A stretch of 64,000 nt of DNA from Escherichia coli (GCF_022846255.1 NZ_AP025682.1), one strand, 5' to 3'; numbered from the stretch's first letter, positions 15,886 to 23,133 are shown. Notes: generated from the letters alone by a model not told the origin. Program-made: numbers and translations.

Positions 15886-16091
15886 GCGAAATTAACTCTC
15901 AGGCACTGCGTGAAGCGGCGGAACGTGCAATTCCAGCAATGGAACGCCTGTTAATGTTGCCAGCTGATGATGATTTGTTAAGTGAACAGGAACTTAAAGA
16001 TTACGGTGTGGATATTGATGCGCTCAACGCCTTCAAATTTCTGGCCGGACCAGAAACCGTGCTGGCACTGCGCCGTCAGGAAGTTTTTTAG
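15882..16091 (+). CDS. Hypothetical acidic protein, last gene of the pL operon
   Basis: 69 aa, GTG start overlapping the TraR-like stop, so likely translationally coupled. Confidence 0.5.
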   Translation: MSEINSQALREAAERAIPAMERLLMLPADDDLLSEQELKDYGVDIDALNAFKFLAGPETVLALRRQEVF

Positions 16092-16120
16092 TACGATCAA
16101 TGGTTAACTCAACTCTCATG
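16034..16120 (-). CDS. Candidate 28-aa ORF downstream of the LexA-box promoter
   Basis: Strong SD GAGGAGGG 5 nt before ATG; MRVELTIDRTKKLPDGAVPARFLVRPEI; antisense to the 3' end of gene 15882..16091. Confidence 0.25.
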
Positions 16121-16138
16121 ATTCCCTCCTCATTGATT

Positions 16139-16189
16139 TACTGTGTGAATATACAGTTACTTTATAAACCTCTCATTTGGATTTTGCAA
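16139..16189 (-). promoter_or_regulatory. Putative LexA-repressed promoter
   Basis: Minus strand TTGCAA, 17-bp spacer, TATAAA, then TACTGTGTGAATATACAGTT on + (CTGT-N8-ACAG) covering the predicted start site. Confidence 0.5.
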
Positions 16190-16223
16190 TGTTTTAAGGG
16201 CACGAATTGCGAATAACCCTATA

Positions 16224-16256
16224 CAAAAAAACCCGCCGAAGCGGGTCTTATCTTTC
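16224..16256. terminator. Bidirectional intrinsic terminator
   Basis: AAAAAAA-CCCGC-CGAA-GCGGG-TCTTATCTTTC; strong U-tract for minus-strand transcripts, weaker for the plus-strand pL operon. Confidence 0.6.
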
Positions 16257-16257
16257 A

Positions 16258-16431
16258 TTAATGCTTAGTCCTTACAGGAAAAGACCAGCATTTATATCCG
16301 TATGCGTGTGCATCCAAAACTCGGCGCTCTGAGTCAGGCGTCCCAGCTTTAGCTCGCGCCCTGCGATAACGACATTTTACCCAGCGGAAACCATCCGGAA
16401 GTTTTTTGGTAGGAATTTCTTTCAAAGCCAT
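16258..16431 (-). CDS. Candidate 58-aa basic ORF
   Basis: ATG with GAGG 7 nt upstream; MALKEIPTKKLPDGFRWVKCRYRRARAKAG...; below the ORF-track size cutoff. Confidence 0.2.
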   Translation of the reverse strand: MALKEIPTKKLPDGFRWVKCRYRRARAKAGTPDSERRVLDAHAYGYKCWSFPVRTKH

Positions 16432-16580
16432 AAATAAACCTCGTTCCAGGCGAGCACTTCCCTGAAACTTGATAAAAATATGGGGATCCGCTAATGTACT
16501 GTTGTTGACGCAGTACTGATTGCGGGTGCTCTAACATCCCCAATCCGAGCCCTTCCCCGGCAAAGGAAGGGCTCAAATTC

Positions 16581-17111
16581 TTATGAAGGCTTCACATACG
16601 CCTTCAAAATCGACATAATACGCTCAGCTTCTTCCATCGTGATGTTGGTAGGCAACCCCTGAACTGTAATCATTGCCCCTGTTTCAGGTCGAACAACGAT
16701 CGGTAAATTGAAAGTCTGCACTTTCTCATGTCTTGCAGCTTTAGCTTTCTCCATCTTCTGCTCCACCGCATCAAACCCATCTAAATTTCCTTCGGTGTCT
16801 GCCAAGTTGACTAAAGTCCCCACTCGCGTGTACTCCTCAAACTTATTGACAGCACTTTTAAACCGGCTTCGATAATTATGAATGGTGGATTCACTGGGCT
16901 TGTTTGCCTGAGTTTCAGCATAACGAGTAATGAGGTCTTCAACGTTCAGGTCGCGCACATCATCGTTGTCACTCGTGTCGACCACAGATAACAGCAGCAA
17001 CGCAGAATTTTTTAAGTTGCGAGCTGTTGCTTCGTTGATCAGCCCCAAGTTAGGCAACTTCATAAGAAAATCGAAGAATGCTTGCGTTGAGTAATTATCG
17101 TTCATAAGCAT
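16581..17111 (-). CDS. Hypothetical protein, 176 aa, no recognisable family
   Basis: ORF track; ATG start; hairpin GAGCCCTTCC...GGAAGGGCTC just after the stop. Confidence 0.6.
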   Translation of the reverse strand: MLMNDNYSTQAFFDFLMKLPNLGLINEATARNLKNSALLLLSVVDTSDNDDVRDLNVEDLITRYAETQANKPSESTIHNYRSRFKSAVNKFEEYTRVGTLVNLADTEGNLDGFDAVEQKMEKAKAARHEKVQTFNLPIVVRPETGAMITVQGLPTNITMEEAERIMSILKAYVKPS

Positions 17112-17156
17112 CTCTCATTGTTATCCATAGGTGTAGTGTAGATTCAGAGGTTTTAC

Positions 17157-17196
17157 CGATCAATGTTTTTTTTATCGATCGATCAATCTTTTTTTA
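17157..17196 (-). promoter_or_regulatory. GATC-clustered direct repeats in the leader of the 176-aa gene
   Basis: Three GATC within 27 bp; two copies of CGATCAAT each followed by a T-run, 45-85 bp upstream of the start codon. Confidence 0.35.
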
Positions 17197-17337
17197 AATC
17201 TAACCAATCCCACCCACTTAAAAACACTCAACAACATTTCACCCCCTCAGAAACAAAATAAAATAAACTATATAAAACAACAAAATACACAGATCTATAA
17301 AACAGACAACCGCCCCCGCCTCCCCCACCCCATACTG
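17186..17337 (-). repeat. Strand-asymmetric tract: G-depleted on +, G-rich on -
   Basis: About 6 G in ~150 nt on +; minus strand has GGGGTGGGGGAGGCGGGGGCGG (17310-17331) and further G-runs. Confidence 0.45.
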
Positions 17338-17407
17338 AATTTAGATACAGCCTTAGTTAATCAACCTTCGTTCACCAGAGCAGCACATATGCCTTCGGAC
17401 TTTTTAG

Positions 17408-17995
17408 TTAAGCCACAAATGGCAGTTTGCACAGTTCTGGTAGATTTGCCCTTACCAGAGCCTCCGCGAATTGTGGAGGTACGGCATTTCCGCATCTGGC
17501 GACCTGTTTATCCTTCGCATACTTCACGCCACGATAATCTTGGTCGATGATGTACCAGTCCGGGAAGCCCTGCGCCCGGTACAGTTCACGCGGCTGTAAC
17601 ATGCGCATACCAATATCAACAATGCGATACGTCACGCCATCGATCACCACCAGCCCGGTACAATCCTCGCCACAGTATTTACGCAGGAACGACAGCGTTT
17701 GTTGCGCGCGTTCTTCGTCGTACTCATCTACGGCAAGATGGGTTTCAACGTTCCCTACATGCAGGCCACCAGCCGTGACAGTCGGCATTGGCGCGTCGGT
17801 GCGTTGTCCATCCCGGCAGGTTCCGCGCAATTTAACCAGGTGAGAAGCAACCACAGCATGGTGATCGACGGTGGTCACAGAATGCATCGGCTCATCCATC
17901 CCCACTTCGGCAATAAACCGGTAAAGGTGTTCGCGATAAAGGTGAATATCAATGACTAAATCAGCAGCAGAAAGCAAAAGAATTTTTAGGTACAA
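17408..17995 (-). pseudogene. Remnant of a DNA cytosine-C5 methyltransferase (C-terminal part only)
   Basis: Motif IX-like RMLQPRELYRAQGFPDWY and motif X-like ARCGNAVPP present; no FxGxGG or PCQ motifs; ORF opens only with TTG. Confidence 0.6.
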
Positions 17996-18065
17996 TCAAA
18001 ATCACTTTTTGTTGTTAACTATTTGATGAACTACAAGGATAAGATCATGTATCAGCAAATCATTT

Positions 18066-18356
18066 TTGAAGAAGGAAAAGAACCAAGAGTGCACACAAGC
18101 CACCAAGACATCAAGACATCAAGACATCAAGACATCAAGACATCAAGACATCAAGTCTATCGAAATAAGTGATAACAGTGGAAAAGTTCAAGAGATTTCG
18201 GTTATGGAGTTCAAGGATACCAGAGGAGATGTTTTTTATGCTTACAACTATGCTTATTCTGGTAAAAAACCATCAAATGACGAAATCTATAAGGCTATTG
18301 ATGAGCTAAAGCCAATCGGTGAAAAATTCGAAATGTCTAAGACTATAAGCGATTAG
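18066..18356 (+). CDS. Hypothetical small protein containing an octanucleotide tandem repeat
   Basis: ORF track (TTG start, no SD); upstream ATG at 18047 with AAGGA SD is out of frame by one repeat unit. Confidence 0.4.
   Translation: MKKEKNQECTQATKTSRHQDIKTSRHQDIKSIEISDNSGKVQEISVMEFKDTRGDVFYAYNYAYSGKKPSNDEIYKAIDELKPIGEKFEMSKTISD
18102..18157 (+). repeat. Octanucleotide tandem repeat ATCAAGAC
   Basis: Five perfect units at 18110-18149 flanked by ACCAAGAC and ATCAAGTC; unit length is not a multiple of 3. Confidence 0.9.
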
Positions 18357-18518
18357 ATAAATCTGTTTTCAACATTGCAGCAAAATCATAGGAAGAACGC
18401 GACAAAGTTAACATGCTATCGCGAACAGTCGTTAACATCACCTAAAGTCAGCGAATCGCGATACATGGAAATGTCTGGGAAGAACGCCAAGAAGTAAGCG
18501 CAATTTGAACAAATGCGA

Positions 18519-18545
18519 ACCCGCCGAGTGCGGGTTTTCTTTTAT
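18519..18545 (+). terminator. Intrinsic terminator
   Basis: ACCCGC-CGAGT-GCGGGT followed by TTTCTTTTAT. Confidence 0.6.
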
Positions 18546-18586
18546 CTGAACTCGCTACGGCGGGTTTTGTTTTATGGAGACAAGAA

Positions 18587-20400: not shown

Positions 20401-23133
20401 GTGAATTTAACCCTGACCCGAAGACTCTGGATGGGCTTTGCCCTGATGGCGCTGTTAACCCTGACCAGTACCCTGGTGGGATGGTACAACCTGCGCTTTA
20501 TCAGCCTGGTGGAAAAAGACAACACTCAGGCATTGATTCCTACCATGAATATGGCGCGCCAGTTGAGCGAAGCCAGCGCCTGGGAACTTTTCGCCGCGCA
20601 GAACCTGACCAGTGCCGATAACGAAAAGATGTGGCAGGCGCAGGGGCGAATGCTCACCGCACAAAGCCTGAAGATTAATGCGTTGCTGCAAGCGTTACGG
20701 GAACAAGGTTTTGACACCACCGCTATTGAACAACAGGAGCAGGAGATCTCCCGTTCGTTACGTCAGCAAGGGGAACTGGTGGGACAGCGTTTGCAACTGC
20801 GCCAGCAACAACAGCAACTCAGTCAGCAGATAGTCGCCGCCGCCGATGAGATCGCACGCCTGGCGCAAGGTCAGGCGAATAATGCGGCAACCTCCGCCGG
20901 AGCGACCCAGGCCGGGATTTACGATTTGATCGAACAACATCAGCGTCAGGCCGCAGAAAGTGCACTCGATCGGCTGATTGATATCGATCTTGAGTATGTT
21001 AACCAGATGAATGAACTGCGCCTTAGCGCCCTACGGGTGCAGCAAATGGTGATGAATCTGGGGCTGGAACAGATCCAGAAAAATGCGCCAACGCTGGAAA
21101 AGCAGCTCAATAATGCGGTGAAAATTCTGCAACGTCGGCAAATACGCATTGAAGATCCGGGTGTTCGTACTCAGGTAGCAACAACGTTAACTACCGTTAG
21201 CCAATATAGCGATTTGCTGGCGCTGTATCAGCAGGACAGTGAAATCAGCAATCACCTGCAAACTCTCGCCCAAAATAACATCGCCCAATTCGCGCAGTTT
21301 AGTAGCGAAGTCAGTCAGCTGGTCGACACCATTGAGCTGCGTAATCAGCACGGACTGGCGCATCTGGAAAAAGCCAGTGCACGCGGGCAATACAGCCTGT
21401 TATTGCTGGGGATGGTTTCACTTTGCGCACTGATACTGATCCTCTGGCGCGTGGTTTATCGCTCAGTCACGCGTCCACTTGCCGAACAAACGCAGGCACT
21501 GCAACGACTGCTGGACGGTGATATTGACTCCCCTTTCCCGGAAACCGCTGGCGTACGGGAACTGGACACCATCGGGCGGCTGATGGATGCGTTTCGCAGC
21601 AGTGTTCATGCACTGAATCGCCACCGTGAACAGTTGGCGGCGCAGGTCAAAGCGCGTACAGCTGAATTGCAGGAACTGGTGATAGAACACCGACAGGCAC
21701 GGGCGGAAGCAGAAAAAGCCAACCAGGCAAAATCAGCGTTTCTGGCGGCGATGAGCCATGAGATCCGCACACCGCTGTACGGTATTCTCGGTACCGCACA
21801 GCTACTGGCAGATAACCCCGCACTTAACGCTCAGCGTGATGATTTGCGGGCAATTACCGACTCTGGCGAATCGTTGCTGACCATCCTCAACGATATTCTC
21901 GATTATTCGGCTATCGAAGCAGGCGGCAAGAATGTTTCGGTCAGCGATGAACCCTTTGAACCGCGCCCGTTGCTGGAAAGTACCCTGCAATTAATGAGCG
22001 GACGGGTGAAAGGTCGCCCGATTCGCCTGGCAACGGCAATTGCCGACGATGTACCGACTGCGTTAATGGGCGATCCGCGGCGTATTCGTCAGGTCATTAC
22101 CAACCTGTTGAGCAACGCCCTGCGTTTCACCGACGAAGGGCACATTATCCTGCGTAGTCGCACTGATGGCGAACAATGGCTGGTCGAAGTGGAAGACAGC
22201 GGTTGCGGTATTGATCCCGCGAAACTGGCAGAAATCTTCCAGCCATTTGTTCAGGTAAGCAGCAAACGCGGCGGAACCGGGCTGGGGCTGACTATCAGTA
22301 GCCGTCTGGCCCAGGCGATGGGCGGCGAACTGAGCGCCACCAGCACGCCGGAGGTTGGAAGCTGTTTTTGTTTACGCTTGCCGTTACGTATTGCCACTGC
22401 ACCCGTGCCAAAAACAGTCAATCAGGCGGTACGTCTGGACGATTTGCGTTTGCTGTTAATTGAAGATAACCCGCTCACCCAGCGAATTACTGTCGAAATG
22501 CTGAACACCAGTGGTGCGCAGGTCGTTGCAGTAGGAAATGCCGCGCAGGCTTTAGAGACACTGCAAAATAGTGAACCATTTGCTGTCGCACTGGTGGATT
22601 TTGATCTGCCGGATATCGACGGCATTACGCTTGCCCGGCAACTGGCACAGCAATATCCGTCGCTGGTTTTGATTGGCTTTAGCGCTCATGTCATCGACGA
22701 AACACTGCGCCAGCGTACCAGTTCGCTATTTCGCGGGATTATCCCTAAACCGGTGCCGCGTGAAGTGCTCGCTCAATTACTGGCGCACTATCTCCAACTG
22801 CAAGTCAAAAATGATCAACCGCTGGATGTATCGCAACTCAATGAAGATGCTCATTTAATGGGGGCGGAGAAGATCCACGAATGGCTGATATTATTTAAAC
22901 AACATGCCCTGCCGCTTCTCGATGAAATCGACATTGCCCGCGCCAGTCAGGATAACGAGAAAATAAAGCGTGCCGCACATCAGCTAAAAAGCAGTTGCTC
23001 GAGTCTGGGAATGCGTAGCGCCAGCCAGCAATGCGCACAACTGGAGCAGCAGCCATTATCTGCCCCCCTTCCACACGAAGAAATTACACGCAGTGTTGCC
23101 GCTCTGGAAGCATGGTTAATAAGAAAGACCTGA
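20401..23133 (+). CDS. torS: TorS hybrid sensor kinase
   Basis: 910 aa, [33 protein letters not shown]..., HisKA/HATPase/receiver/HPt; GTG start. Confidence 0.95.

Follow-up and report, generated by a model that had tools for sequence, protein, structure and literature searches.

A small gene in a lambdoid prophage of Escherichia coli carries, in its 5′ part, an octanucleotide array whose copy number differs among close relatives of the prophage, so that the gene is in frame (ON) in some copies and frameshifted (OFF) in others. The 64-kb stretch of DNA analysed here, which we refer to as the window, holds one of the OFF alleles. Judged by sequence comparison, the array is probably a recent, hypermutable variable number tandem repeat (VNTR) that works as a frameshift switch, but not one that has been under selection for long, where “hypermutable” refers to a comparison with SNP divergence and denotes a lower bound that lies far below classical phase-variation rates.

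Tandem Repeats Finder describes the array (Table 1) with a period of 8, 7.5 copies, 96% matches and a score of 106, and reports it as the only strong tandem repeat in the window. A probe of three units gave 5 matches against 0.00 expected from 100 shuffles. The tract is preceded by …GAACCAAGAGTGCACA and followed by CAAGTCTATCGAAATAAG…, and its 8-bp units occupy codons 17-36 in the 5′ part of the ORF, within a region (17950-18400) having a GC content of 0.35 vs. ~0.50 around it. This agrees with an earlier note on the window, which had noted that a small gene of an AT-rich insert has an octanucleotide repeat in its 5′ part; the register used there, five copies of ATCAAGAC at 18110-18149 plus degenerate flanks, denotes the same tract as our register of six copies of CAAGACAT. 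Since its repeats are arranged head to tail and their copy number differs between isolates, the array belongs among VNTRs. Folded as single-strand DNA, the tract has no hairpin potential (z = -0.47) and therefore fits simple misalignment, and hairpin-driven instability was rejected for the same lack of structure. Two further candidates were discarded: an RNA element, as Rfam gives nothing in the small-gene module and the tract has no fold, and an iteron or protein-binding array, as most alleles carry a single unit.

From its ATG to its stop codon the small gene measures 310 nt and is out of frame in the window allele. The ATG at 18047 stands 7 nt behind its Shine-Dalgarno (SD) sequence, and its assignment as the start codon, made earlier on the basis of this SD, is borne out by the Gifsy homologues and by ~150 E. 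coli-type alleles, all of which start at the equivalent ATG and read through. The frame opened by this ATG indeed ends at the TGA 18170-18172 after 41 codons, and the long frame ending at 18356 opens only at the SD-less TTG 18066, with no purine-rich stretch upstream, both as previously proposed. Translation from this TTG gives a 96-aa ORF identical to a GenBank entry, BDH33982.1 (E. coli locus tag TRECRb50_27980). The annotated ORF is an artefact of the frameshift, a by-product, and in view of the alignment and of the predicted fold described below a function for it is unlikely, strand 1 and the conserved N-terminal residues being missing: the invariant F7 and the nearly invariant E8, G10, P13 and R14.

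Since 8 is not divisible by 3, ATG 18047 stays in frame only at CAAGACAT counts of 1, 4, 7 etc. Indeed, in a series of synthetic alleles the ATG was joined to the C-terminal domain only at n = 1, 4, 7 and 10, whereas at n = 3, 6 and 9 the sole long ORF started at TTG 18066, and at n = 2, 5 and 8 only a 50-aa C-terminal piece was left. Adding one unit to the window allele yields a protein of 105 aa and removing two units one of 97 aa; the earlier proposal that these steps restore the frame is hence correct, and the product size of about 110 aa given with it was slightly high. Compared with the common 89-aa allele, the window copy has an extra 40 bp (5 units), and is therefore frameshifted and OFF. 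On this alignment, the window allele is a repeat-induced frameshift. A programmed ribosomal frameshift would have to be a +1 shift, and no slippery motif is visible and the tract is unfolded; moreover, most alleles of the small gene need no frameshift.

Table 1. Coordinates, in the window, of the repeat tract, the small gene with its reading frames, and the surrounding prophage segments.
Feature	Position	Strand	Details
Octanucleotide VNTR	18096-18155	+	CAAGCCAC x1 (18096-18103), CAAGACAT x6 perfect (18104-18151), CAAG (18152-18155)
Small phage gene, phrog_7123 family, OFF allele	18047..18356	+	In-frame alleles are 89, 97 or 105 aa
Stub from authentic start	18047..18172	+	41 codons (MYQQIIFEEGKEPRVHTSHQDIKTSRHQDIKTSRHQVYRNK), then TGA
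96-aa TTG-initiated ORF	18066..18356	+	Without SD and without the invariant N-terminal strand
2.6-kb variable cassette, prophage early-left region	15920..18558		Alignment with L003 and L004 breaks at 15919/18559
5′-truncated C5 DNA methyltransferase remnant	17408..17955	-	Matches 214-393 of the 400-position phrog_23072 profile
Conserved 5′ flank of small-gene module	17957..18046	+	SD AAGGA at 18035-18039; aligned with Gifsy-1 and Gifsy-2
3′ untranslated part of module	18357..18570	+	Hairpins 18517-18537 and 18548-18567; 42-bp insertion 18416-18457 relative to Gifsy

The small gene is a real, conserved phage gene. Its n=1 allele matches phrog_7123 over residues 1-89 (E = 9.1e-50), a Citrobacter homologue matches the same family (E = 1.4e-31), and 89-aa homologues annotated as hypothetical proteins are present in the Salmonella prophages Gifsy-1 (STM2623.1n) and Gifsy-2 (STM1019.1n). 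The protein had been described as belonging to no recognisable family, which is true of Pfam, but does not survive the phrog_7123 match and the Gifsy homologues; sequence searches of Pfam, PADLOC, NCBIfam and PDB gave no match for it. A search of 5.8 billion protein clusters returned 32 related ones. Proteins of the E. coli type have 89 aa, or 96-97 aa when counted from an upstream ATG in the same frame, and read MYQQIIFEEGKEPR[V/L]HTSHQDIKSIEISD…, which corresponds to a single CAAGACAT unit. More distant relatives of 76-84 aa, with identity down to 36%, were recovered by an exhaustive profile search, and these too are found among early accessory genes near an integrase. Across an alignment of 17 homologues, reaching down to 36% identity, 12 columns are invariant (M1, F7, D44, R46, P62, A70, I71, D72, L74, K75, P76, and G78) and 7 nearly so (E8, G10, P13, R14, G32, Y53, and G59).

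The AlphaFold (AF2) model of the small protein (pLDDT 89, pTM 0.78) consists of seven β-strands and one helix, and resembles, with a TM of ~0.7, the models of enterobacterial prophage proteins of ~75 aa that AFDB lists as YnfN or Qin prophage protein. In this model the repeat insertion point falls in the loop between strand 2 (14-18) and strand 3 (24-28). When the 105-aa allele was modelled, residues 21-34 appeared as a disordered loop (pLDDT <50) and the remaining fold was kept, and in-frame expansions are thus plausibly tolerated by the predicted fold. Residues 15-43, which surround the tract, evolve fast: between an E. coli-type (L018) and a Gifsy-type (L001) allele, codons 1-44 carry 18 nonsynonymous and 3 synonymous differences (pN/pS ~1.3), and codons 45-89 carry no differences. 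Mosaicism through recombination could account for this N-terminal divergence, as could diversifying or relaxed selection acting on strands 2-4.

The flanks of the locus match E. coli chromosomes and carry bet, exo, ea22, xis and int, followed by torS and yccM; by this gene content, the host replicon is a lambdoid prophage integrated next to torS in E. coli. The small gene is part of the 2.6-kb cassette, together with an Ead/Ea22 fragment, a 176-aa phrog_2602 gene (minus strand) and the truncated methyltransferase (minus strand), the repeat gene itself lying on the plus strand. The cassette is missing from otherwise collinear torS prophages of other E. coli, and it recurs in the loci that we designate L005, L006, L008, and L017-L026. 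The methyltransferase remnant also matches the PADLOC/TIGR00675 dcm models at their C-terminal ends; it contains QGFPDWY and GNAVPP and lacks a PCQ motif, the small-gene module stands in the place of its missing N-terminal half, and the listed 195-aa ORF extends beyond it into sequence that is unrelated. Downstream of the 176-aa minus-strand gene, the minus strand of 16226-16375 gave sub-threshold Rfam matches to RsmY (22 bits vs. a gathering threshold of 57) and isrK (21 bits vs. 50), both of them probably due to chance. As for the neighbouring torS, the copies of L006 (6385-8294) and of the window (20500-22355) differ by ~10%, although the prophage cassettes are nearly identical, meaning either that the prophage lineage resides in different host backgrounds or that torS is recombinant; the torS of strain Rb-23 (L003) carries a frameshift according to its annotation.

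Homology to the Gifsy prophages begins at ~17957, and a module of ~0.6 kb (17957-18570), comprising the 5′ flank, the gene, the 3′ UTR and the hairpins, is common to the E. coli prophage, Gifsy-1, and Gifsy-2. In Gifsy-1 and Gifsy-2 the module is located in the nin region (L001, L002 2860-3400), vs. the early-left region in the torS and ybhC prophages of E. coli. In the alignment, the window agrees with Gifsy in ATG and SD and has, relative to it, a clean insertion of five units (40 bp); identity is 100% from ~18205 into the 3′ UTR and ~85% in the 5′ half. With regard to the properties of a moron, the two hairpins are intrinsic-terminator-like and the insertion places differ, and a promoter scan detected no consensus sigma-70 promoter in the module.

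Copy number was compared across related prophages by taking the members of the 90% cluster that contains the TTG ORF of the window, retrieving their DNA and counting the units. Expressed as CAAGCCAC+CAAGACAT units, the window is 1+6 and OFF. An ENA metagenome (L005) has 1+7, which is ON with 105 aa and is exactly the predicted n+1 allele, and a 4.67-Mb ENA contig with the same torS prophage (L006) has 1+4, which is ON with 97 aa and is the predicted n-2 allele; both of the alleles forecast from the window thus exist as intact ORFs. L006 additionally shows an E>K exchange at the position equivalent to 18330. A contig present in three samples (L008) has 4+4 and is in frame, but carries GAA>TAA at the equivalent of 18321, removing the last 13 residues. 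Finally, a different prophage (L007) has 1+3 and is OFF; it belongs to the Leu-15 lineage, a second allele lineage with Leu instead of Val at residue 15. At least 23 contigs carry the one-unit cassette, with torS or ybhC as the attachment site (L017-L026).

No two of the five expanded observations have the same configuration, and the four that share the cassette differ from each other and from the n=1 cassettes (L017-L026) by only 0-3 SNPs per ~2.3 kb; outside the tract, no SNP within the ~2.3 kb compared is restricted to the expanded alleles. Copy number, whose invariance across isolates would have spoken against the earlier note, is therefore variable, with 1, 4, 6, 7, and 4+4 units on one cassette and 3 units elsewhere. 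As far as these alleles represent it, the tract turns over much more quickly than point substitutions build up, and expansion can affect either type of unit. One expansion event could be the common origin of the expanded cassette alleles, with only a few steps after it.

Tract-length polymorphism with both ON and OFF alleles is thus seen among close relatives, but it is not a property of the gene carriers at large. Among E. coli-type alleles, ~150 contigs have one unit vs. five with more (~3%), each of the five coming from one contig (one of these in three samples), and alleles with n = 2, 5 or 8 are invisible to the protein look-up, as they give the same 50-aa call as the Salmonella frameshift allele described below. 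The tract is not conserved, with ~97% of the E. coli-type alleles single-unit, and no repeat is present in the homologues of Salmonella and Citrobacter or in the more distant ones. This rarity suggests sporadic, lineage-specific expansion in a weakly constrained prophage gene. None of 5,426 complete RefSeq E. coli genomes was matched by 17950-18450 in a megablast search, hence the small gene is rare there. GTDB species representatives gave 0 matches to the expanded tract plus flank and to the conserved 5′ coding 26-mer, and in a scan of JGI metagenomes a single locus matched the right flank, and it has n=1. Exact look-up of ten hypothetical alleles (n = 3, 9, and 10 and an n=4 variant; stubs of n = 2, 3, 5, and 8; Leu-15 lineage n = 3 and 4) found none of them in the protein collection. 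An IMG/VR scan for CAAGACATCAAGTCTATC returned 7 matches, which were dismissed as unrelated chance matches.

The gene is also inactivated by other routes. In a Salmonella lineage (Newport and others; L027 1455-1470, L028), a 1-bp insertion of T converts CCAATAAGT to CCAATTAAGT and truncates the Gifsy-type gene after 28 codons, leaving an annotated call that covers the last 50 codons only. This insertion is fixed in a widely sampled lineage, its protein P0038 being present in 294 index blocks (also P0040). Frameshifts were also seen at the T6 (18232-18237) and A6 (18264-18269) runs, giving P0026, P0028, P0029, P0043-P0047 and P0050, and in P0046 a second shift at the A run restores the frame. 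These frameshifted proteins could reflect real homopolymer slippage or sequencing errors in automated assemblies.

Taken together, we propose the following scenario. The ancestral one-unit sequence already comprises three imperfect 8-bp units, CAAGCCAC CAAGACAT CAAGTCTA, all of which begin with CAAG, and slipped-strand misalignment within this proto-repeat would have duplicated a unit. The perfect tract thus formed would then expand and contract quickly, with each gain or loss toggling the frame: the n=6 state of the window is OFF, producing the 41-residue stub, and gain of one unit or loss of two would bring back the full protein, with extra TSRHQDIK octapeptides in the predicted surface loop between strands 2 and 3. 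All of this would happen in a gene which, carried on the ~0.6-kb module, travels among E. coli and Salmonella lambdoid prophages. We infer both slippage as the mechanism and its reversibility on laboratory time scales. Loops of 8 nt should escape MutS-dependent repair, and slippage becomes more frequent as copies are added. An estimate for VNTRs of enterobacteria puts the ratio at one VNTR change per ~6.9 genome SNPs (PMC5183578).

It can be asked whether the array goes beyond such a recent VNTR and is an evolved contingency locus, with the repeat kept by selection because high-frequency ON/OFF variation of an early phage protein is advantageous. The switch would then serve bet-hedging by the prophage or its host, the protein for example helping against a competitor or defence and being costly or detectable in other hosts. 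The earlier note had called the repeat a candidate phase-variation switch, which is a fair description, but a contingency locus of the Haemophilus or Neisseria kind is not established and the repeat is not conserved. Several observations do point in this direction: the non-triplet unit falls within the 5′ part of the ORF, one background harbours alleles of both states, the predicted ON versions among them, the tract has expanded independently in a second prophage lineage (L007), and 3/5 expanded alleles keep the frame where chance would give 1/3, though here detection is biased. Furthermore, the fast evolution of residues 15-43 (18 nonsynonymous vs. 3 synonymous) is as seen in host-interaction proteins, the homologues belong to the early-left accessory region, a place where genes of phage-host conflict gather, and homopolymer contingency loci have recently been reported in virulent coliphages (bioRxiv 10.1101/2025.10.21.683753). 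On the contrary, one unit is the state of ~97% of the E. coli-type alleles and the Salmonella- and Citrobacter-type homologues have no repeat, the in-frame expanded L008 bears a nonsense codon, the fixed 1-bp insertion in a widespread Salmonella lineage indicates that the gene is often simply lost, and the protein has no match in PADLOC, Pfam or PDB. On balance we regard long-standing selection for switching as unlikely. The same doubt attaches to the specific form of the proposal, namely a prophage-borne contingency locus which at ~4 or more units would switch ON/OFF at ~1e-4 to 1e-3 per generation. Were it true, it would be the first simple sequence repeat (SSR) phase switch, other than a homopolymer, to be described for a temperate lambdoid phage, and would show a contingency locus in the act of arising out of a three-unit proto-repeat; in-frame steps would, in addition, make a surface loop longer or shorter, and mixed populations of lysogens and virions would hedge against host defence or a competing phage.

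The losses of the gene raise the opposite question, whether it is dispensable in the lysogen and plainly decaying into a pseudogene, repeat expansion being just one of several inactivating accidents. The Salmonella T insertion (P0038), the GAA>TAA of L008 and the T6/A6 frameshifted products would all fit, as would the truncated methyltransferase remnant next door and the pN/pS of ~1.3 in the N-terminal half. Against such decay, the family is kept down to 36% identity, with a confidently predicted fold and with 12 columns invariant and 7 nearly so, and most alleles are intact, including in-frame versions of 97 and 105 aa on the same background; the latter imply that frame restoration or in-frame stepping has happened, or that ON states have been retained. 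Plain pseudogenisation is accordingly improbable. It is far harder still to credit that the differences in copy number are artefacts of sequencing or assembly, or that the frameshift is bypassed by way of the TTG or by ribosomal frameshifting. Several loci do come from metagenome or automated (Logan) assemblies, and GenBank does annotate the TTG ORF. However, the tract spans 28-68 bp in the alleles compared and is thus shorter than a sequencing read, and five independent assemblies, one of them represented by a contig in three samples, show clean whole-unit differences between perfect flanks; likewise TTG 18066 lacks an SD and its product lacks strand 1 and the conserved N-terminal residues, and the +1 shift that is needed has no evident slippery motif. 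A recent VNTR acting as a frameshift switch, but without a long history of selection, hence remains the probable reading.

The value of the locus lies in its being a naturally polymorphic octanucleotide array in a lambdoid prophage gene, with ON and OFF alleles on an almost identical background. It is a tractable case for the birth of a switch from a proto-repeat, for the use of such switches by temperate phages and for the role of phrog_7123 proteins, and the tract could be used as a VNTR marker for the prophage lineage. Should switching turn out to be slow and the protein to be without phenotype, we would be dealing with an ordinary VNTR in a decaying accessory gene.

The best known SSR contingency loci are those of Haemophilus influenzae, Neisseria, and Campylobacter, with tetra- and pentanucleotide tracts in lic, mod, and opa. 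The present array is similar to these in having a non-triplet unit in the 5′ part of an ORF, where gain or loss shifts the gene between ON and OFF, and in having natural alleles in both states. It differs in that the repeat is not conserved across strains, expansion being rare (~3% of alleles), and in that the gene is a prophage accessory gene rather than a surface or restriction-modification gene. Closer to home, VNTR loci are typed by MLVA in E. coli O157 and Salmonella Typhimurium, and one of them, STTR6, lies in Gifsy-1. These share with the present array a short unit, an enterobacterial and partly prophage-borne location and a copy number that changes faster than SNPs, but they mostly have 6- or 9-bp units or are intergenic and do not toggle a frame, whereas here an 8-bp unit lies in coding sequence. 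In general, E. coli, which is commonly seen as having few SSR switches, is reported to avoid SSRs in coding regions (PMC3315296).

Phage contingency loci have been proposed only recently, and so far for homopolymers in virulent coliphages, namely T2 and T4 (Gomez, Barrick and Waters, bioRxiv 10.1101/2025.10.21.683753); lambdoid phages are not mentioned among the top matches of a literature search on contingency loci and lambdoid phages. The T2/T4 loci resemble the present one in that reversible slippage would shift the frame of phage genes, for which bet-hedging against host defences has been proposed. They are mononucleotide runs of at least 6 in lytic phages and were measured experimentally, whereas ours is an octanucleotide in a temperate lambdoid prophage and is known from sequence alone. 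The nearest relatives of all are the Gifsy genes STM2623.1n and STM1019.1n of the phrog_7123 family, for whose locus tags a literature search found nothing. Gene and module are orthologous, with 100% identity in the final 45 codons and at the beginning of the 3′ UTR, and the Gifsy copies have the same start codon, SD and terminators as the window. However, they have no repeat, and their place is the nin region, with rightward transcription from the replication genes, as opposed to the early-left position next to xis-int that the repeat-bearing gene occupies in E. coli.
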